Shown one piece after another: positions 358-44,196 of a stretch of 56,299 nucleotides of DNA (its first letter is position 1; each line of letters begins with the position of its first letter). A model generated the notes under the pieces. It was not told where the DNA came from. It worked only from the letters and a program-made list of their open reading frames with translations, and ran no database searches. The DNA lies in the NCBI GenBank assembly GCA_964431685.1, contig CAYSLA010000003.1, positions 1 to 56,299 on the forward strand. The letters are read 5' to 3'. The position numbers and the translations under genes were made by a program. This DNA comes from an uncultured bacterium (GTDB lineage Bacteria; Armatimonadota; UBA5829).

Positions 358-2421
358 CTATGCGGCGTTTGTCTCGCGGTATTCGCCTCGCCAGTTTGCC
401 AGGAATTGTTCGAACTCAAGGGCTGGCACAGGTCTGCTCACCAGGTATCCTTGGACTTCGTCACATCCAAGCGTCTTGAGATAGTGCCACTGTTCGCGTG
501 TCTCGACACCTTCTGCTACTACCTTCATACACAGGTTGTGAGCCATTGCCACAACGGCGCCGCATATTGAGGCATCATCCAGATTTGTGGTAACATCCCG
601 CACAAACGAACGGTCTATCTTCAGGCAGTCAATGGGGAAGCGCTTCAGGTAGCTCAGCGACGAGTAGCCGGTTCCGAAGTCATCGATCGTGACGCTTACG
701 CCCAGCCTCTTGAGGAGACGAAGTGTCTCCACCGCGTGTTCAGCATTCTGCATAAGGGCGCCTTCGGTTATCTCTATCTCGAGCAATTGCGGCGGCAGAG
801 CCGATTCAGCGAGAACCGTCTCGATGATTCTCAACAGCGACTGATCCGATTGGAACTGCTTCGGCGACACATTGACGGAAACACGCAGATCGGCCCCTCC
901 CTGTTTGTGCCAGGCACAAGCCTGAGTGCACGCGTTGCGGAGCGCCCACTCTCCCAGGGGCACTATCAGCCCGGTTTCTTCAGCGATGGGTATGAATGAA
1001 GAGGGCGGAGTAATGCCGTTCTCGGAGTGCTGCCACCGAAGCAGCGCTTCTGCACCGGTCACAGCGCTGGTGAACAACTCGACTCTCGGCTGATAGAAGA
1101 GCACAAACTCCTCGCGCTCAACTGCTTTCCTTAGATCCTGCTCAATCCTCAGGTTCTCCATCGCGACGATGTTGGTATTCTCGCAGTAGGCTTGATACCG
1201 GTTTCTGCCTCTCTCTTTGGCCTTGTACATTGCAGCATCGGCGTTCATGAGCATGGTTTCCATATCCGTTCCGTGCGCAGGACAGATGCTGTAGCCGATG
1301 CTTGCTGATGTTACGAGCTCGTGTCCGTCCACCAGGAATGTGCACCTGAGCGACTCGAGCACGCGTCTGGCCGCCGCGCGGACATCTACCTCCGATTGCA
1401 CCTCACTGAGCAGAACTGCGAACTCGTCCCCGCCCATCCGTGCCAGAGTGCCCGTACCATCCACACACTCCGCGAGCCGGTCTCCAACCTGCCGCAGCAG
1501 CGCGTCTCCGACGTCGTGACCGAGCGTGTCATTGATTACCCTGAACCTGTCAAGATCCACAAACAGTACAGCCAGCTTCTTTCTGCTGTCTCTAGACTTC
1601 AGACTGCGATCCAGTTCCTGGCGGAAGAGTTGCCGATTGGGCAGGCCGGTGGCGATATCGTAGTGGGAAAGGCGATCGAGTTGTTGCGCGTGGTTCTTGT
1701 GCTCCGATATATCGCGGAGTATGACGCTGAACACCGTTCTTCCGTTCATCTCAATGGTTTCGACGGTAACGTGAACGTCAATCAATCCCCCGTCTTTGCG
1801 TCTGTGTCGCGTTTCGAAGCAGTCTCGCCCCTTGCGAAGAATGCGTTTGACGCGGCGGCGGAGAGCCTGTTCGTTGTGAGCAGCATCATAGTCCAAGACG
1901 CGCAGGGAGGAGAACTCCTCACGTGTGTAGCCGAGCATATCGCAGACAGCATCGTTGTACATTATGGGAAGCGAGCTGTTGGCGTCAATCAGCAGAACGC
2001 CGTCAGATAGCGAGTTCAGTAAAGCCTTGCAGCGGTTATCCGAATCTCTGAGCCGGTTCTGGGTCTCGGCCAGAGAACTCGCTGCTTCGCTCAGTTGCTC
2101 CTGAGTCTGACTGAGCTGCTGCAGCGTGGAGTAGAGGCTGTCACTGGAGGTCTCGCCGAAGTCTGTGCGCACCCTTTCCATCAAGAAGTAGGCGATTGCC
2201 GCACAGAGCAAAACGAACAGCACGACACTGAGGTGGATTGAGAGTTGCTCGCGGGTGGTCTCAAGCGTTAGTATCCAACCACCCAATGCCAGCGGAATAC
2301 ACAGCAGTCCAACCGCAACCACACTTGGGATTCGGCCGTTCTTAGGCTCCCTGGAACTTCGGTTCAAACCTAACTGGGGTCTGATTCTCGCAAACATTAT
2401 CCACCAGCCTGCTGGGCACAC
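358..2421 (-). CDS. Membrane-anchored PAS-GGDEF-EAL c-di-GMP turnover protein
   Basis: 687-aa ORF. Two N-terminal hydrophobic helices, a coiled-coil and a PAS-like segment are followed by a GGDEF domain (RMGGDEFAVLL). The EAL domain shows EALLRW and DDFGTGYSSLSYL. The start is either the GTG at 2421 or the ATG at 2397. Confidence 0.9.
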   Translation of the reverse strand: MCPAGWWIMFARIRPQLGLNRSSREPKNGRIPSVVAVGLLCIPLALGGWILTLETTREQLSIHLSVVLFVLLCAAIAYFLMERVRTDFGETSSDSLYSTLQQLSQTQEQLSEAASSLAETQNRLRDSDNRCKALLNSLSDGVLLIDANSSLPIMYNDAVCDMLGYTREEFSSLRVLDYDAAHNEQALRRRVKRILRKGRDCFETRHRRKDGGLIDVHVTVETIEMNGRTVFSVILRDISEHKNHAQQLDRLSHYDIATGLPNRQLFRQELDRSLKSRDSRKKLAVLFVDLDRFRVINDTLGHDVGDALLRQVGDRLAECVDGTGTLARMGGDEFAVLLSEVQSEVDVRAAARRVLESLRCTFLVDGHELVTSASIGYSICPAHGTDMETMLMNADAAMYKAKERGRNRYQAYCENTNIVAMENLRIEQDLRKAVEREEFVLFYQPRVELFTSAVTGAEALLRWQHSENGITPPSSFIPIAEETGLIVPLGEWALRNACTQACAWHKQGGADLRVSVNVSPKQFQSDQSLLRIIETVLAESALPPQLLEIEITEGALMQNAEHAVETLRLLKRLGVSVTIDDFGTGYSSLSYLKRFPIDCLKIDRSFVRDVTTNLDDASICGAVVAMAHNLCMKVVAEGVETREQWHYLKTLGCDEVQGYLVSRPVPALEFEQFLANWRGEYRETNAA

Positions 2422-2564: not shown

Positions 2565-3113
2565 CTATCTGCTCTTGATCGGACCGAGGGATATTTCAAA
2601 GTCGGATGGTGTGGTGGTCTCCGGCGCGATGATCACCGGTCTGGCGCCACGGTCAGGGGGTATGATGTCTTTGGTTCCCAGAGGAAACGAGCGGAGATTG
2701 CGCTGTGCCCACTGGGCGGCCTCTTTGCTCACAGGACTCTTGAGGTTGTAGCTGCGATACTGAATCATATCGCCTATGTGGGCGATTATGTTTACCAGAG
2801 TCACACCGGCGGACCAGAAGTCCCCGATACACACATAGTCACCGATGTTCGGATGCCAGATGGGTGTGTGCATAACGCATCGTGGGGATTGTTTGGGATA
2901 TCCCAGAGGAAGCGTGATGTCGACCACGTGTTTGGTGACACCGTGGGGCCGCTGCTGCGAAGCGTCCCACGCAATGCCACTCAGGTTATACGTGACCAGA
3001 TACCGGCCGGGCGGATCGCCCGACACTGCTTGAACCGATACAATGTCGCTGTGCGAAAACTCCGAGAGCACCTGTCTATAATCGTTGGCGAGTCGCCTTG
3101 CGCGGATACTCAT
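2565..3113 (-). CDS. Ubiquitin-conjugating enzyme (canonical UBC/E2 fold) homologue
   Basis: 182 aa. The core reads LPLGYPKQSPRCVMHTPIWHPNIGDYVCIGDFWSAGVTL, which matches the eukaryotic E2 core pattern YP..PP.v.F.T.i.HPNI...G.iCl..L...WSpa. The HPN codons are at 2847-2855 and the candidate catalytic Cys95 codon is at 2829-2831. The N-terminal RRLANDYRQVL resembles E2 helix 1. The ATG overlaps the JAMM stop (ATGA at 3110-3113). Confidence 0.85.
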   Translation of the reverse strand: MSIRARRLANDYRQVLSEFSHSDIVSVQAVSGDPPGRYLVTYNLSGIAWDASQQRPHGVTKHVVDITLPLGYPKQSPRCVMHTPIWHPNIGDYVCIGDFWSAGVTLVNIIAHIGDMIQYRSYNLKSPVSKEAAQWAQRNLRSFPLGTKDIIPPDRGARPVIIAPETTTPSDFEISLGPIKSR

Positions 3114-4567
3114 TCTTCTTCAGTCCCCGGTTTCTCCAGGCGCCTTGTTTCTTCGGGAGAGATTGCGCCCAGCATGTCCTTGGGCCGAGGATCACGCCGC
3201 GTATTTGCAAAGGCTGCAAGGTCCAATTGCTCGCTGCGTGTCATCTCGCCAAACACCCTCTTGAGGGTTGACTCCGGGGCGTCAAGAAGAGACGTGTGGA
3301 AGCGTTTCTTCTCGCCCTGAAGCCACCTCAGAGCAGCTCGGTACTCCTCCGGGGCTCTGGATTCGGCAGGGCCCTTCGAACTCGCTCGAACCATATTGGA
3401 CGCCAGTCGGGCGCGTTCGACTCTTTCCGGCCAAGTTCGCGCATGGCGCCAGTAGACTTCGGCAAGCCTTGCGGCGCGCGCAGACGCGGCCGAGGCCTGT
3501 GCCTGTGAAGCATCCTTGTCTACACCGATCCTCTCGCCTACTGAGAGCGGCCGATTGTCGCTGCGGTTGGCGGCGATGGAGGCTGAGATGATAAGGTTCG
3601 CTCCGTCAAGCTCGGGGCTGTCGAGTTCTCGCGCCCGCAACGCCGCCCGCACCTTCACAAGCCTTTCAAGTTCCCGAAGTGCGGCACTGTTGGTCCGATC
3701 TGCAGCCACAGCACGCCTTAACCAATCCTCCGCGTCCGAGTAGTCCGAAATCCTGATCAAGCGCAGAGCCACCTTAGTTGGGTCGGGAGGCGGGTCAGGA
3801 CGCATCGCAATTGAAAGGATTAATCCTGCGAGCACGAGCGTGGCAATTGCCCAGGGCAACCATCCGCGAATCCCGAGCTTTCGGGTCCGGCGCGTGCCAG
3901 CTATTGAGGATGAGGCAGCATTAGCGGCCGCGGTGTCGCGCCTGCGATATTCGCTAAGCCTCCTGGCAGTGTCTCTGGCCTTTCTGGACGATCGCTTCTC
4001 CTCGAAAATGTAGAATCCTCGGGTTCTTACCAGGGATCCGTCTTTCCATCTGAAGCAGCCCCAGTTCTCGTGCATTGGGTCCAGAACGAGCGCGACCTGC
4101 CACGGGTCCCGAAAGAACCCGTTGTGGATAAAGTCGTCCTCCCTGCTCATGAAGACCCCAAGGCCAGGGTGCGTATGATACCACCCAACTATCTGCCGAT
4201 TCTCCCCGAGGCGAGCGAGCTCCTTGCTGATCTCCTTCCAGGATTCGTGCGTGAATGTGAAGGAGATGTCCGTCTTCTGGTCACTGGGCGCTTCGATGAT
4301 GCCGTCGATCTCGATGTATGATTCCGTCTGTGTGCGGTAGAAGCCGCCCACCAGCACTCCTCCAGTCTCTACGCCGGAGTCTGCCGTGGCTTGAGCGGAA
4401 ATCCCCGCTATCACACTCTCGCGGATGAAGACCGGGATGCTGTCTGAGGCGGGATCGTCGTACGCGAAGCAGACAAGAGACCTGTCCAGCAACGGGCTGG
4501 GTTTTGACTCTATGCCTTTACGCTTTGACTCACCAAGACTGATTTCGAAATCACCGTCAGAGTTCAA
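3110..4567 (-). CDS. JAMM/MPN+ metalloisopeptidase (deubiquitinase-like) with one TM helix and a ~230-aa C-terminal helical domain
   Basis: 485 aa. It has the conserved Glu (VETGGVLVG) and the complete JAMM motif WYHTHPGLGVFMSREDD (H-x-H-x7-S-x2-D). A hydrophobic helix WLPWAIATLVLAGLILSIAM (about residues 236-255) is preceded by RRTRKLGIR. The C-terminal region is Arg/Ala-rich and helical. The start is a TTG at 4567 with a GGGAG Shine-Dalgarno 7 nt upstream. Confidence 0.85.
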   Translation of the reverse strand: MNSDGDFEISLGESKRKGIESKPSPLLDRSLVCFAYDDPASDSIPVFIRESVIAGISAQATADSGVETGGVLVGGFYRTQTESYIEIDGIIEAPSDQKTDISFTFTHESWKEISKELARLGENRQIVGWYHTHPGLGVFMSREDDFIHNGFFRDPWQVALVLDPMHENWGCFRWKDGSLVRTRGFYIFEEKRSSRKARDTARRLSEYRRRDTAAANAASSSIAGTRRTRKLGIRGWLPWAIATLVLAGLILSIAMRPDPPPDPTKVALRLIRISDYSDAEDWLRRAVAADRTNSAALRELERLVKVRAALRARELDSPELDGANLIISASIAANRSDNRPLSVGERIGVDKDASQAQASAASARAARLAEVYWRHARTWPERVERARLASNMVRASSKGPAESRAPEEYRAALRWLQGEKKRFHTSLLDAPESTLKRVFGEMTRSEQLDLAAFANTRRDPRPKDMLGAISPEETRRLEKPGTEEE

Positions 4568-4585
4568 GGATCATCTCCCGCTGAA

Positions 4586-4618
4586 CACCTCCCCCCTCCG
4601 TTCCGGAGGGGGGAGGTG
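4586..4618. repeat. Perfect 15-bp-stem C/G-rich palindrome CACCTCCCCCCTCCG-ttc-CGGAGGGGGGAGGTG
   Basis: Read directly. It lies in the intra-operon spacer about 20 nt upstream of the JAMM start. A related copy is at 13890-13929. One arm contains the SD-like GGAGGTG and the other contains its complement CACCTCC. Confidence 0.85.
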
Positions 4619-4705
4619 CTGATACGCTGCACTTCGTAATGGACGTGAAGGGGCGAGTTCTCAAATGCCGCCCCATCGTGGGCTCGGCCAGGCAAGATGT
4701 CTGTA

Positions 4706-4737
4706 CCACAATGCCCGACATGAGTGTCGGGCCTACC
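4706..4737 (-). repeat. REP element (GTAGG + CCCGACA..TGTCGGG palindrome), copy 1 in the Ub-operon spacer
   Basis: The plus strand reads ccacaatgcccgacatgagtgtcgggcctacc. On the minus strand it starts with GGTAGG followed by a hairpin. It is 31/32 identical to the copy at 4778-4809 and belongs to the same family as 44139-44196. Confidence 0.85.
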
Positions 4738-4777
4738 TTCTGGGGGAGGTTGGACGCCGCCCCCCGTGTCTCGTGCG

Positions 4778-4809
4778 CCACAATGCCCGACACGAGTGTC
4801 GGGCCTACC
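4778..4809 (-). repeat. REP element, copy 2 (direct orientation relative to copy 1, 72 bp apart)
   Basis: The plus strand reads ccacaatgcccgacacgagtgtcgggcctacc. It has a single mismatch to copy 1, located in the hairpin loop. Confidence 0.85.
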
Positions 4810-4829
4810 ATAGCCTGCCCCATAGTGGT

Positions 4830-5243
4830 CTAGCCCAGGAACTTCCAGAGCAGAAACGCCCCACCACCAATGATAATGCCGTAGAAGATTATGTTGCTGA
4901 GGGATGCCGTGCGCTGCTTCACTCTGCAGTTCCAGCAGAGCAGGTGCTTTTCGTCCGCCACCTCGCCACACGCAAAACATCTCATACTGGGCCTGTCCGC
5001 TTCAACGGACGACTTTGGCTGCGAAAGCTCAACAGTGGCATCCACCCGCGGCGCGATCTTCTCCGCTATACTCTCATCCCACAGCGCAGCGCCATCACAC
5101 CCATACACCGCGCATTTTCCGTTCGCTTTCCAGCACTCCCGATGATGCGATGACCCACATCTGGGACACCTTACACGCTCATCGGATTCGCCGATGTTTC
5201 CCAGGCAGTACGGGCACTTGCCCGGTTCGCTGTTTGTGCTCAT
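4830..5243 (-). CDS. Tail-anchored RING-like (C4HC3 binuclear treble-clef) zinc-finger protein, paralogue B; candidate E3
   Basis: 137 aa. The N-terminal ligand pattern is CPYC-x12-CPRC-x4-H-x2-CW-x5-C-x4-C. A second CxxC-x10-CxxC zinc ribbon follows (CFACGEVADEKHLLCWNC). The C-terminal hydrophobic helix is IIFYGIIIGGGAFLLWKF. The ATG overlaps the stop of paralogue A (ATGA at 5240-5243). Confidence 0.75.
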   Translation of the reverse strand: MSTNSEPGKCPYCLGNIGESDERVRCPRCGSSHHRECWKANGKCAVYGCDGAALWDESIAEKIAPRVDATVELSQPKSSVEADRPSMRCFACGEVADEKHLLCWNCRVKQRTASLSNIIFYGIIIGGGAFLLWKFLG

Positions 5244-5692
5244 TTAATCCACTGCCCTCCAATCGTAATGAGCAGTATCAATCCAACCAAACCCAGGACA
5301 AACAAAGCTCCGAGCATAAGGGCCACCGGATTGTCTGTCCTCTGCGACTCCTCAAAACTGCGCCTGCATTCCTGGCAGCTCAGTTCCCCCTCTGGCAGTT
5401 GCCGTCCGCACACGATGCACGGATTGTACCCTGAGGGGGCGGTTCTGTAAGGCTTGATTACTATCTTCTCTCGCTGCCCGCCAACATCAAGTGTCACCTG
5501 CTCCGTGACATTGATCTCGGTGCGCTTTACGGATCTCGGACAATCCGGAACGCAGCAACCGCCGTTCTCGTCCCAGCACTCGCTGTGCATCACGGATCCG
5601 CAGGCCTGGCACGCGACGGCGGTCTCGCCCTGTGCGATATTGTCGAGGCAATACGGACACGTGCGCTCCGACGGGGAACCCTGTTCTCCCAT
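5240..5692 (-). CDS. Tail-anchored RING-like (C4HC3) zinc-finger protein, paralogue A; candidate E3
   Basis: The pattern is CPYC-x12-CQAC-x4-H-x2-CW-x6-C(C)-x3-C, followed by CIVCGRQLPEGELSCQEC and the C-terminal TM helix LMLGALFVLGLVGLILLITIGG. I prefer the ATG at 5692, which lies 7 nt after the E1 stop, over the TTG at 5713 given in the ORF track. Confidence 0.75.
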   Translation of the reverse strand: MGEQGSPSERTCPYCLDNIAQGETAVACQACGSVMHSECWDENGGCCVPDCPRSVKRTEINVTEQVTLDVGGQREKIVIKPYRTAPSGYNPCIVCGRQLPEGELSCQECRRSFEESQRTDNPVALMLGALFVLGLVGLILLITIGGQWIK

Positions 5693-5699
5693 ATCTGTG

Positions 5700-6896
5700 C
5701 TAGACAATCCCAAATACCTGCTTCAGGTCTCCGCTGATCTCCACACCCACGCTTGTCTCGGAGAATCTGACCGTGACGATCTCCGCCGGGGCAAACCCCA
5801 TATCCTGAAGCGTCAGATGACTGAGACTCGCTTCTCCCACACATTCTGTTACGACATCCGGTAGCCTGAGAGTTCCACACTTTGGGCACGCCGCTTCGTC
5901 CGGCGTCACCGTATCCAATAATCGGTAGAATCCAACCCGCTCTTCACAGGCTCTGCATTCCAGACTGGTAACTATCTCGGACGGAGGCTCGATTCGTCCG
6001 GTCATGCCCATTTCGTGTTGGGCGGCGTCAAGCACATCGGATATGGTGGCAGTTTGGCGATCCAGTTCTGTTTCTATCACGACGTCCAGCGTTTCGTGGC
6101 TTATGCAGTCGTCCCTGCGCACGTAGCCTACGGTGAAGCAGTCGTAGGTCAGTCCGTCGAAGAAGAATCCTCTACCAGCCAGTCCGGGAAGACCGGCGCC
6201 GGGATGCAGCAGTTTGACCGCTTCCTGAACCTCCACGCCGGCGATAACCGCAGCGGTTGCCGGGGTAGTGGGAGTTCGTCCCGCGTGTGCTGCCTGCCTT
6301 TCAATGAAGCCGCACGAGTTCCTTATGGTCATGAACCTGGTGTCCTGCTCACTCAGTGTGCACTCATAGCAGGGGCCATCAGGCGGCACAAATACTCTGG
6401 CTATGCCCTGAAAGGCTTCCGTAGCACCGTCCACCCAGGGCCTGTTCACCTTCCAGCAAGCCCGGTTGACCGCAAAACGCGCGTCGCGGTTGTCCAATCC
6501 GGCAATTACCACGTCTGCCCAGCGGAAGAAGCCAGCGCCCACCTGCGTAGTAACGTCTGCGTTCATCCATCGGGGCTGACAGTCCGGGTTGATAGATTGA
6601 GCTGCCTGGGCCGCAACCTCTGCTTTACACCTGCCCCGGTCGGACTTGCGATACAGAACGCTGCGTGAGAGATTGGAGTCCTCGATCTCGTCGAAGTCCA
6701 CTATCAGCAAGTGACCCACCCCGAGAAGCGCGAGGTTCTTGACTATCTCGTTGCCTAGAGCTCCTGCCCCGACAACCAATACGCGTGCATCGGCCAGTGC
6801 ACGCTGATCCCACCACGGGATCAGGCGAAGCCGCTCATAGCGGTCTTCCGGAGCGTCAAGATGTATGATTTCGCTGGCGGGTTCATCGAAGTTCAT
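5700..6896 (-). CDS. Ubiquitin-activating (E1) enzyme homologue, ThiF/MoeB/Uba adenylation fold with C-terminal Zn-ribbon and putative ubiquitin-fold extension
   Basis: The Rossmann/ATP motif is VLVVGAGALGNEIVKNLALLGVGHLLIVDFDEIEDSNLSRSVLY, followed by GLDNRDARFAVNRAC. CxxC pairs are present (PCYEC, CRAC...CPKC), and a Cys in the crossover region (IRNSCGF) is a candidate catalytic residue. I prefer the ATG at 6896, 5 nt after the Ubl stop, over the track start at 6959, which would overlap the Ubl gene by 58 nt. Confidence 0.85.
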   Translation of the reverse strand: MNFDEPASEIIHLDAPEDRYERLRLIPWWDQRALADARVLVVGAGALGNEIVKNLALLGVGHLLIVDFDEIEDSNLSRSVLYRKSDRGRCKAEVAAQAAQSINPDCQPRWMNADVTTQVGAGFFRWADVVIAGLDNRDARFAVNRACWKVNRPWVDGATEAFQGIARVFVPPDGPCYECTLSEQDTRFMTIRNSCGFIERQAAHAGRTPTTPATAAVIAGVEVQEAVKLLHPGAGLPGLAGRGFFFDGLTYDCFTVGYVRRDDCISHETLDVVIETELDRQTATISDVLDAAQHEMGMTGRIEPPSEIVTSLECRACEERVGFYRLLDTVTPDEAACPKCGTLRLPDVVTECVGEASLSHLTLQDMGFAPAEIVTVRFSETSVGVEISGDLKQVFGIV

Positions 6897-6901
6897 TTCG
6901 C

Positions 6902-7171
6902 CTATCCGGCCGTTATCTCCGGTATCAACCGCAGAACATCTCCTTCGTTTACCTCGCACTGTGCCAGGGTGAGGTTGTCCAGAAGATGCCTGCCGGTCGC
7001 TTTGTGCAGAAACTTATATGTGATTGGAACGCCGGCAGTGTTAACCACGGGCAGATATAACGCCTCTATGAGCTTTTCGACTACTCGCCCCACCGGGACA
7101 TCATCCGGAACAACTGCTTCCTGCTCCTTGCTTCCCGTGGTGTCTATTACTACGATATTGAGCTTTGCCAT
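6902..7171 (-). CDS. Ubiquitin-like beta-grasp protein ending in a free C-terminal glycine (…LRLIPEITAG-stop)
   Basis: 89 aa. The hydrophobic periodicity resembles ubiquitin (LNIVVID…, GDVLRLIP). The ORF terminates immediately after Gly89. A GAGG Shine-Dalgarno lies 7 nt upstream of the ATG. It is the first gene of the operon, directly upstream of the E1. Confidence 0.75.
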   Translation of the reverse strand: MAKLNIVVIDTTGSKEQEAVVPDDVPVGRVVEKLIEALYLPVVNTAGVPITYKFLHKATGRHLLDNLTLAQCEVNEGDVLRLIPEITAG

Positions 7172-7189
7172 ATGTTGACCTCTGAACAG

Positions 7190-7218
7190 ATTATACCCGA
7201 TTACGCCGCGACACTCAA
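7190..7218 (-). promoter_or_regulatory. Sigma70-type promoter of the Ubl-E1-RING-JAMM-E2 operon (TTGAGT-17 nt-TATAAT)
   Basis: The minus strand reads TTGAGTgtcgcggcgtaatcgggTATAAT. The -10 element ends about 18 nt upstream of the Ubl ATG, so the 5' leader would be very short. Confidence 0.6.
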
Positions 7219-7377
7219 CGCGCCGAATCCCGGCCGGAACGTCGTCGTGAGCAACCGCTTCTTGTGGTATCCACTACTGCGGTATTGAGGATTCGCGAGC
7301 ACCGGCCTGCCCAGCTGCCAGAATGAGTCGTACCGCGTCCAGGGCTTACTAACCGGTGGGAATTGTCTCTCCGCAAA

Positions 7378-7386
7378 TGGTATAAT
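7378..7386 (+). promoter_or_regulatory. Extended -10 element (TGGTATAAT) upstream of pstS
   Basis: Read directly. It is divergent from the Ubl promoter. No clear -35 element was seen. Confidence 0.4.
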
Positions 7387-7511
7387 GTGATTGCTCTCCA
7401 GCGTGGTAAGCCGAAATTGCGTCGCAGAGAACCGTGACTGCGTACCGGGTCACAGCGTGCAGAACAACTCGGCTTCTCACGAATGATACAAGCCAATAAG
7501 AGGTCCTGGCC

Positions 7512-8495
7512 ATGGTAACGATGGTTTGCGTTTTGAACCGTCAGAGGAAAGAAAGATTGGATAAGAAAACTGCTGTATCCGTTCTGCTGGCGGCACTGAT
7601 CCTGGCATCGGCCGCGGCGTCCACACCCCTGCAGGCTGCACAGCTTTCGGGCACACTGAGCTTGTCCGGCGCCTGGGCAATCTACCCGCTCGTCGTCAAG
7701 TGGGCCGAAGCCTTCAAGAAAGCGAACCCGAAAGTCAAGATGGACATCTCAGCCGGAGGCGCGGGCAAGGGCATGGCTGACGCTCTCGTTGGGGCAGTCG
7801 ATATCGGAATGGTTTCGCGCGAGGTGGATAAGACCGAACTTGCGAAAGGCGCGCTGCCGATTCTCATTGTCAAAGACGCGGTCTTCCCAACCATCAGCGC
7901 ACGCAATCCCGCCGTGAAACGGGCTGCCGCAAAGGGCATGTCGCGCAAGACACTCGTTGACATCTATGTCAGAGGTACGGTCAAGAACTGGCGCGACGTC
8001 GGAGGGGCCAACACTCCGATCCACGCCTACACTCGCTCCGATGCGTGCGGGGCTGCGTCAGCGTGGGCCGCCGCCCTCGGCAAGTTCAAGCAGGATGATC
8101 TGAAGGGAATTGGAGTCTACGGAGATCCTGGACTCCTGGCGGCTGTGGTGCGCGATCCGCTGGGGATGGGCTACAACAACCTGAGCTACGTCTTCACCGG
8201 CGACAAGGTAGCCAGGGGGATAGCGATCGTGCCAATCGACGCCAACAACAACGGCAAGATTGATGCTCACGAGCGAATTGACTCCCTGTCAAAGGCAGAA
8301 AGAGAGATTGCGAGCGGACGCTATATCGGCGCGCGCAGGGAGTATCTCATGACGAAAGGTAAGCCGAAACCACTCGCGCGCGCATTCATCGAATTCGCCC
8401 TGAGCGACGCCGGAAACAAGATAGTCAAAGAGGTCGGAGGCTACGTGCCGTTGTCCGACTCCGAACGTGCCCAGCAACTGCGAAAGATGAGATAG
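7512..8495 (+). CDS. pstS: Phosphate ABC transporter substrate-binding protein PstS
   Basis: Signal peptide (KKTAVSVLLAALILASAAAS). The PstS-type core reads SGAWAIYPLVVKWAEAF…ISAGGAGKGMADALVGAVDIGMVSREV. It is followed by pstC, pstA and pstB. Confidence 0.85.
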   Translation: MVTMVCVLNRQRKERLDKKTAVSVLLAALILASAAASTPLQAAQLSGTLSLSGAWAIYPLVVKWAEAFKKANPKVKMDISAGGAGKGMADALVGAVDIGMVSREVDKTELAKGALPILIVKDAVFPTISARNPAVKRAAAKGMSRKTLVDIYVRGTVKNWRDVGGANTPIHAYTRSDACGAASAWAAALGKFKQDDLKGIGVYGDPGLLAAVVRDPLGMGYNNLSYVFTGDKVARGIAIVPIDANNNGKIDAHERIDSLSKAEREIASGRYIGARREYLMTKGKPKPLARAFIEFALSDAGNKIVKEVGGYVPLSDSERAQQLRKMR

Positions 8496-44138: not shown

Positions 44139-44196
44139 GGTAGGCCCGACACTCCTGTCGGGCCCCTGCACACCCGACAGGAGTGTCGGGCCTACC
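44139..44196. repeat. REPIN: two inverted REPs (GGTAGGCCCGACACTCCTGTCGGG / reverse complement) separated by 10 nt
   Basis: Perfect 24-bp arms read directly. Each arm is itself a hairpin preceded by GTAG. It lies in the intergenic region between the export gene and mfd. Confidence 0.9.

Follow-up and report, generated by a model that had tools for sequence, protein, structure and literature searches.

Two adjacent genes on the minus strand of a 56,299-nucleotide (nt) stretch of DNA from an uncultured bacterium of the Armatimonadota (the whole stretch is referred to here as the window) encode small cysteine-rich proteins, RING A and RING B, each with an N-terminal RING-like domain and a single hydrophobic helix at the C-terminus. 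On the basis of profile matches both are members of Pfam PF14446 (Prok-RING_1, Prokaryotic RING finger family 1), and their genes lie in a six-gene operon in the order YukD-like ubiquitin-like protein (Ubl), E1, RING A, RING B, membrane-anchored JAB peptidase and E2. On balance we think it probable that RING A and RING B are the membrane-anchored RING-type E3 components of a self-contained bacterial Ubl conjugation operon. The two genes and the domains they are predicted to encode are as follows.

5240 to 5707 or 5240 to 5692, minus strand: RING A, an A-type Prok-RING_1 protein (PF14446, 35.3 bits against a threshold of 29.1)
4830 to 5243, minus strand: RING B, a B-type Prok-RING_1 protein of 137 amino acids (PF14446, 46.6 bits against 29.1)
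5540 to 5659, minus strand: predicted binuclear C4HC3 zinc domain of RING A, residues 12–51 counted from the ATG at 5692 (motif and AlphaFold2)
5097 to 5216, minus strand: predicted binuclear C4HC3 zinc domain of RING B, residues 10–49 (motif, AlphaFold2, Foldseek and profile search of the PDB)
5366 to 5419, minus strand: predicted second zinc module of RING A, CxxC-x10-CxxC, residues 92–109 (motif, four invariant Cys)
4926 to 4979, minus strand: predicted second zinc module of RING B, CxxC-x10-CxxC, residues 89–106 (motif, with a helix leading off the second knuckle)
5261 to 5326, minus strand: predicted C-terminal transmembrane helix of RING A, approximately residues 123–144, followed by six residues (hydropathy and AlphaFold2)
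4839 to 4907, minus strand: predicted C-terminal transmembrane helix of RING B, approximately residues 113–135, ending 2–4 residues short of the C-terminus (hydropathy and AlphaFold2)

The initial annotation, made from the letters of the DNA alone, had read the pair as candidate membrane E3 ligases and had proposed a search with hidden Markov models for prokaryotic RING families. Both proteins score above the gathering threshold of PF14446 (29.1 bits), with E-values of 3.3e-12 for RING B and 1.1e-8 for RING A, and both have the C4HC3 order and the Trp directly after ligand 6 that are features of this family. The E3 reading is thus supported wherever it could be computed, although it had recognised neither that the family is a named one nor that the operon is of a described type.

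The eight-ligand C4HC3 pattern that had been noticed in both proteins is present as CPYC-x12-CQAC-x4-H-x2-CW-x5-C-x4-C in residues 12–51 of RING A and as CPYC-x12-CPRC-x4-H-x2-CW-x5-C-x4-C in residues 10–49 of RING B. The spacings of the last ligands, previously given as x5/6 and x3/4, become x5 and then x4 in both proteins; the ambiguity arose because RING A has an extra cysteine, Cys47, while in the alignment the conserved ligand is Cys46, and the position of Cys47 is occupied by Ala in one orthologue. Among the 448 open reading frames (ORFs) of the window only RING A and RING B contain the pattern, and it appears in 0 of 200 residue shuffles. An alignment of 84 homologues shows no variation at the eight RING ligands, at Trp38 or at the four ligands of the second module, orthologues at 37–72% identity retain every ligand, and 324 of 339 instances of the domain have the full CCCCHCCC ligand pattern. 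Natural variants lacking one zinc site were sought for information on the wiring, but the remaining instances are truncated sequences or single substitutions and gave none.

Conservation on this scale bears directly on the possibility that the genes are spurious ORFs, or Cys-rich sequence with no conserved function, a suspicion to which we give next to no credence and which the conservation already refutes. Nothing was found in its favour; the only uncertainties are the start codon of RING A (an ATG at 5692 gives 150 residues, a TTG at 5707 gives 155 and a TTG at 5713 gives 157) and some metagenome gene calls that differ, giving a protein of 116 amino acids. Gene callers choose the 155-residue form from TTG 5707, a start that would overlap the E1 stop by 8 nt, as it does in one relative. 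Set against this are the above-threshold Pfam matches, the retention of all ligands in the 37–72% orthologues, the absence of the pattern from the shuffles and the presence of the same operon, with identical genes and proteins, on six metagenome contigs shown here, of nine that carry RING B. A pseudogene was suspected from some of these metagenome records, which list a 116-residue RING A and a 102-residue E2, and the suspicion was dropped: the full-length ORFs are intact in those contigs, so the short forms are differences in gene calling.

The AlphaFold2 models have mean predicted local distance difference test (pLDDT) values of 84 for RING B and 81.5 for RING A, with both zinc modules and the C-terminal helix above 90. 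The RING domains are modelled at pLDDT 91–95 in RING A (residues 11–50) and 93–95 in RING B, and the region contains a short hairpin at the second CxxC, after which a helix begins at the His. Structure comparison against the PDB with Foldseek, which covered the RING B model, returned as its top match the RING of RNF165 in its complex with UbcH5b~Ub, at a probability of 0.98 and a target-normalised TM-score of 0.59, the rmsd being 2.5 Å over 46 columns. Further matches include the RINGs of RNF24, RNF126, Arkadia, EL5, RNF38 and RNF12 as well as PHD fingers and a C1 domain, and the list is not dominated by zinc-ribbon proteins, although one ribosomal protein stands in second place. The family profile, when compared with the PDB, matched the RING-H2 domain of EL5 (E = 1.4e-4) and Arkadia (E = 0.008). 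In the register of the EL5 alignment, C10 and C13 of RING B correspond to ligands 1 and 2, C29 to ligand 3, H34 to ligand 5 and C37 to ligand 6, and from this register a cross-brace can be assigned by homology, in which Zn1 would be held by C10, C13, H34 and C37 and Zn2 by C26, C29, C44 and C49.

The CxxC-x10-CxxC motif, which had been described as a zinc ribbon, is present in both proteins, but the models suggest a different fold: it looks like a treble-clef finger, whose helix would continue into the membrane helix. In line with this, the second module of RING A scores just under the threshold of the DUF2116 'probable treble clef' family (26.6 against 26.8 bits). The single C-terminal hydrophobic helix of each protein stands as first noted, with best 19-residue Kyte-Doolittle windows of 2.9 in RING A (residues 124–142) and 1.9 in RING B (residues 118–136); AlphaFold2 places continuous helices at residues 122–149 of RING A (pLDDT 92–98) and 104–136 of RING B (pLDDT 87–96). 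Both proteins have the make-up of tail-anchored proteins, that is a lone helix within about 30 residues of the C-terminus and no N-terminal signal, while A-type orthologues carry a tail of about 15–25 residues beyond the helix. Basic residues (R/K/R) precede the helix of RING B and a Cys-rich domain needs a reducing compartment, both of which would fit cytoplasmic zinc domains.

The genomic neighbourhood of the family speaks for the E3 reading. A scan of one genome per species, with the six window proteins mapped by phmmer, gave 34 loci, in 27 of which genes for Ubl, E1, JAB or E2 lie near the RING domain. The nearest operons are in Armatimonadota bins, at 38–44% identity. The commonest operon type, found in Verrucomicrobiota, Thermoanaerobaculia, Planctomycetota and others, has the order Ubl-E1-JAB-X-RING-E2, so that the RING gene is directly upstream of the E2 gene, and its RING protein of about 190 amino acids has the same RING followed by a CPxCG...RCRHC ribbon and two transmembrane helices. 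Protein X is a multi-pass membrane protein of about 470 amino acids with an apparent C-terminal FHA domain (identified by eye); neither the window nor the sub-type with a RING pair encodes it. Most operons of the commoner type have it between JAB and RING, at positions 6449–7978 of locus L019, 6571–7986 of locus L031 and in 17 other loci.

One or two transmembrane helices follow the RING domain in most of the 34 loci, and a single transmembrane helix is present in 6 of 6 related JAB proteins that were checked. Since these helices recur across loci and in the JAB proteins, membrane anchoring is common to the family at large and to the JAB proteins that accompany it, and is not peculiar to the window. 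In Solirubrobacteraceae each locus has 2–3 RING paralogues, in which the RING is followed by a Pro-rich linker, then by one transmembrane helix and an extracytoplasmic domain. Elsewhere the RING is fused to two transmembrane helices and a trypsin-like serine protease, to one transmembrane helix and four DnaJ-like CxxCxGxG repeats, or, in proteins of 490 amino acids, to helical repeats and a transmembrane helix. Such other fusions (L016 9251–10615; L025 7554–8858; L038 142–990; L010–L012) in several cases have no Ubl-system neighbours.

Several observations weigh against an E3 function. Canonical RING models score below threshold on the two proteins (zf-RING_2 at 14.8 and 14.1 against 27.3 bits; zf-RING_16 at 14.4 against 27.4), the ligand set being C4HC3 and neither C3HC4 nor C3H2C3, and C1 and PHD models score much like the canonical RING models, given which a treble-clef role other than that of an E3 is conceivable. 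None of the Foldseek matches of RING B reaches E ≤ 0.001 and the best stands at 0.05, weak values of the kind that zinc domains of 45 residues usually give. RING B has no basic 'linchpin' residue past its last ligand, where it has Asp50; the E2 of the window has a Lys in loop 4 where UbcH5 has Phe62, which we take to be a RING contact; and 7 of the 34 loci have no Ubl-system genes inside the retrieved flanks. A search of the literature found no experimental or biochemical work on members of PF14446.

Several of these points would suit zinc domains that act as PHD-like or C1-like modules and hold the Ubl, conjugates of it or some other ligand to the membrane, or that are themselves modified substrates or anchors of the pathway. 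PHD and C1 domains are treble-clef zinc domains, and the ligands of RING A and RING B follow the order and central spacing of a PHD finger (C-x2-C ... C-x2-C-x4-H-x2-C). PHD and C1 structures are among the top Foldseek matches of RING B, and the PHD profile PF00628 reaches 18.2 bits on RING A and 10.8 on RING B against a threshold of 24, covering the first 29–30 of its 47 positions. We nevertheless consider such a role improbable, as the best structural and profile matches are to RING domains of E3s, the RING gene is directly upstream of E2 in the majority operon type, and the Tyr/Ile between ligands 1 and 2, the invariant Trp38 and Val46/Tyr47 are conserved hydrophobic positions. These positions, mapped through c-Cbl and UbcH7, are presumably those at which canonical RINGs contact E2. 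The setting of RING A and RING B also differs from that of PHD fingers, being a conjugation operon and not chromatin.

The pair itself has a history. RING A and RING B are 35% identical across 99 residues (E = 6e-16), with the identity mostly within the zinc modules; the description of the genes as tandem paralogues with divergent linkers and constant ligand spacing was sound. The duplication is not a recent one: in a neighbour-joining tree the A types and the B types form separate clades, with the A types closer to the two-helix type, which indicates an old duplication and distinct paralogous subfamilies. The ATGA at 5240–5243 that had been noted at the junction is shared by the stop of RING A and the start of RING B. 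An A-type gene (156–161 amino acids) followed by a B-type gene (139–142 amino acids), in the order of the window, is found in L007 and L008 (Armatimonadota) and in the metagenome contigs L041–L044, while L009 has the B type only; altogether the pair is present in 7 of 8 related lineages. In 7 of 7 lineages with the pair the genes overlap by 4 nt (ATGA, once GTGA), which fits translational coupling of subunits.

The two subfamilies have not been conserved alike. The loop between ligands 7 and 8 contacts E2 in canonical RINGs, and here the B type and 189 two-helix members keep C-x-V-Y-G-C from ligand 7 to ligand 8, while V-Y-G is replaced in 7 of 7 A types. Past the RING the B type has its own motif, CDGWaxWsxxIxeriAP, and the A orthologues share the linker motif LVLS[RK]E[AS]VESA. 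The asymmetric divergence of the A type and the conserved coupling make a joint hetero-complex of RING A and RING B the most likely arrangement, in which RING B would present the family-typical surface and RING A would be a diverged partner.

The initial annotation had left two specificities and a heterodimer side by side. That RING A and RING B are two independent E3s, each of which binds E2 and selects its own substrates through its divergent linker, with no obligate complex, is in our view unlikely. The linkers do differ and are predicted to be disordered (AlphaFold2 pLDDT 47–70), each subfamily has its own conserved linker motif, the B-only lineage L009 means that the B type can work without the A type, and Solirubrobacteraceae carry 2–3 separate RING paralogues with differing extracytoplasmic domains. 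However, a 4-nt overlap in all seven pair lineages fits co-produced subunits, and loss of the near-invariant VYG motif from RING A would be odd for an autonomous E2-binding RING, so that between the two we lean towards a complex. The more specific proposal of an obligate heterodimeric tail-anchored RING ligase, in which RING B would activate E2 and RING A would select substrates or regulate, with targets at the inner membrane, is held tentatively.

One candidate target under the heterodimer reading is the ferrous-iron transporter FeoB. In four related operons of the single-helix sub-type, genes for a DtxR-family iron-dependent repressor with FeoA domains and for FeoB lie 3' of E2, on its strand and about 100–260 nt away (L009 10398–13275; L041 8555–11445; L043 4842–7681; L044 6467–8835), and the window contains neither gene. 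The adjacency may reflect shared synteny or may hint at a membrane target.

The remaining genes of the operon, with its promoter candidate and a spacer, are given below.

7190 to 7218, minus strand: promoter-like site TTGAGT-17-TATAAT immediately before the Ubl gene (10 of 12 consensus positions matched)
6902 to 7171, minus strand: ubiquitin-like protein of 89 amino acids with a predicted YukD-like beta-grasp fold (PF08817, 40.0 bits against 27)
5700 to 6959, minus strand: E1-like adenylating enzyme with a predicted ThiF fold, 419 amino acids from a GTG (PF00899, 188 bits)
4568 to 4829, minus strand: structured spacer of 262 nt between RING B and JAB (palindromes, hairpin, RNA fold z-score −3.5)
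3110 to 4567, minus strand: JAB/JAMM metallopeptidase of 485 amino acids (PF14464, 36.7 bits; PF01398, 33.0 bits)
2565 to 3113, minus strand: E2-like conjugating enzyme of 182 amino acids (PF00179, 36.7 bits against 27)

The Ubl ends in ...LRLIPEITAG, with its terminal Gly already exposed, and the motif LRL[IQ]PEITAG is shared by the Ubls of 11 loci. In the Ubls of L007–L009, L041–L044, L014, L019 and L031, 2–6 extra, non-conserved residues follow TAG, so these would need processing; the window Ubl is already mature, and JAB-dependent maturation seems no longer to be needed in this operon. The nearest NCBIfam models of the E1 are ThiF, MoeB and UbaA, each under its equivalog cut-off, and gene callers give the 398-residue form from an ATG (5700–6896). 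The E2 contains HPNIGDYVC (HPN-x5-C), which predicts Cys95 as the catalytic residue, and in the PDB it is closest to yeast Ubc1 and further E2s (E = 5e-6). E1 and E2 both lack a hydrophobic segment. The JAB protein has an intact HxH-x7-S-x2-D motif at residue 131 and one transmembrane helix at about residues 233–251, and no family match was found for its C-terminal region of about 230 amino acids.

The spacer contains two copies of a palindromic element of about 30 nt, with the core GCCCGACAYGAGTGTCGGGC, at 4713–4732 and 4785–4804, and a perfect 17-bp G+C hairpin at 4588–4616, immediately before the JAB start; two further copies of the palindrome lie at 44144–44191 of the window. In the relatives checked, L007 and L008, only 0–24 nt separate RING B from JAB, so the spacer looks like a lineage-specific insertion within the operon, resembling a repetitive extragenic palindromic (REP) element. 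An Rfam scan of the window found nothing. The site at 7190–7218 is a possible operon promoter, judged by consensus match alone; four such sites were found in the region against 2.2 expected from shuffles.

The operon is flanked by a phosphate ABC transporter and by a PAS-GGDEF-EAL protein, and no defence-island context was seen in its surroundings. The latter gene lies on the same strand, 144 nt downstream of E2, and the metagenome contig L001 has it as two separate ORFs (212 and 475 amino acids).

358 to 2421, minus strand: PAS-GGDEF-EAL protein of 687 amino acids (nearest NCBIfam model phosphodiesterase DibA, below its cut-off)

With these components a pathway may be proposed. The soluble E1 would adenylate the exposed Gly89 of the Ubl, which would then be handed on to the soluble E2 and carried there as a thioester on Cys95. 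Both RING proteins would have their N-terminal C4HC3 domains in the cytoplasm, with the C-terminal helices holding them at the inner face of the membrane, where the RING domains would recruit the E2~Ubl and favour modification of lysines on targets in the membrane or close to it. The membrane-anchored JAB peptidase would then take the Ubl off again.

The family is large: among 1.84 billion proteins a profile built from the 84-sequence alignment retrieved 10,993 cluster representatives with a cut-off of E ≤ 0.001 and 1,609 with one of E ≤ 1e-10, with the reservation that the weak tail of the larger count may include proteins that match in the ribbon or the helices only. A profile is needed for this purpose: a single-sequence word search with RING A recovered only itself. 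Neither PADLOC nor NCBIfam includes a model for the RING proteins or for E2, and a plasmid search found no homologue. The profile matches P0155, P0156, P0165 and P0269 include family proteins with 3 or 4 tandem RING domains and one protein of 1,317 amino acids in which 19 stretches match the ribbon region. Three unverified 'Bacteriophage sp.' contigs of 5.8–7.1 kb from human faeces (MT838038.1, positions 2048–2284, labelled L045; MT837325.1; MT837617.1) encode CFSC-x12-CPEC-x4-H-x2-CY-x6-C followed by a CxxC...CxxC ribbon, at 27–29% identity (E = 1e-4); no ORF with a start codon is listed in its frame.

RING A and RING B thus belong to a known family in a known operon type and do not define a new kind of system; both family and operon type were reportedly described in 2011. 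Burroughs, Iyer and Aravind are said to have proposed then that prokaryotic RINGs are E3s and that YukD-like Ubls are conjugated (Mol Biosyst 7:2261). What the window shares with other PF14446 operons is the C4HC3 ligand set and a neighbourhood of YukD-like Ubl, E1, E2 and JAB; it differs from the commoner type in having two heterotypic single-helix RINGs, the order Ubl-E1-A-B-JAB-E2 and no X. This sub-type, which is without the FHA membrane protein, comes from metagenome bins related to the Armatimonadota, and its conserved pair of heterotypic, tail-anchored RINGs may be new. In passages of two later articles the prokaryotic RINGs of Ubl-E1-E2-JAB operons are credited to Burroughs, Iyer and Aravind 2011 (PMC10557695, PMC7159879), one of which speaks of a 'prokaryotic RING-type E3 component' in tri-ligase systems (PMC7159879). 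According to a review, prokaryotic RINGs have a C4HC3 configuration (PMC11354881).

The closest system with biochemical data is that of Caldiarchaeum subterraneum, whose operon encodes Ub, E1, E2, a small RING finger protein (srfp) and Rpn11 (PMC5654768, PMC6043591). There the RING is required for E1/E2-dependent modification of substrates in vitro (PMC5654768), and Rpn11 trims a C-terminal extension of Ub (PMC6043591). The two systems are alike in being compact prokaryotic operons with all five kinds of component, and the JAB of the window's relatives would trim the short Ubl extension as Rpn11 does. In contrast, the archaeal RING is a RING-H2 (C3H2C3), with no transmembrane segment mentioned (PMC5654768), while the window has C4HC3, membrane-anchored RINGs and JAB, a modifier whose sequence is YukD-like and not ubiquitin-like, and two RING genes. 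The bacterial Bil, Bub and type II CBASS operons, which have been shown to conjugate proteins, encode E1, E2, Ubl and a peptidase of JAB type (PMC10557695, PMC11601603, PMC11601596); they differ from the window in having no RING component. On the window operon PADLOC gave weak matches only, to JAB and, of a generic kind, to E1 (best 60 bits to an 'E1-E2' model; 35 bits to BilD), and its models did not match E2, the Ubl or the RING proteins.

Among eukaryotic ligases, MARCH/RING-CH proteins, Hrd1 and Doa10 also tether a cytoplasmic binuclear zinc domain to the membrane, and the ligand set of RING-CH is C4HC3. The likeness does not extend to the details of the domain. The RINGv pattern has C-x-C at ligands 3–4, an H seven residues on and a long loop before a final C-x2-C, whereas RING A and RING B have CxxC-x4-H, a much shorter loop from ligand 6 to ligand 8 and a final C-x4-C. 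The Pfam RINGv model (RING-CH, MARCH type) gave no match to either protein at E ≤ 1. Their anchor is a single tail helix, unlike the multi-pass domains of eukaryotic membrane RINGs. In the heterodimers BRCA1-BARD1 and RING1B-BMI1 one partner alone binds E2, which the loss of VYG from the A type resembles.

Bacterial RING-type E3s have been predicted since 2011, the literature search found no report that any has been tested, and the work on Bil, Bub and CBASS concerns pathways without an E3. The operon described here would be a convenient system for study because it is compact: it has six genes, a Ubl that is already mature and ends in a reactive Gly, soluble E1 and E2, and small RINGs. It raises the questions of whether E2 activation by RINGs existed before eukaryotes and of what role a membrane-localised Ubl tag may have in a bacterium. 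The conserved heterotypic pair poses the further, testable question of whether RING heterodimers exist outside eukaryotes; if RING A and RING B do form an obligate heterodimer, it would be a bacterial counterpart, and possibly an antecedent, of the heterodimeric and membrane RING ligases of eukaryotes.

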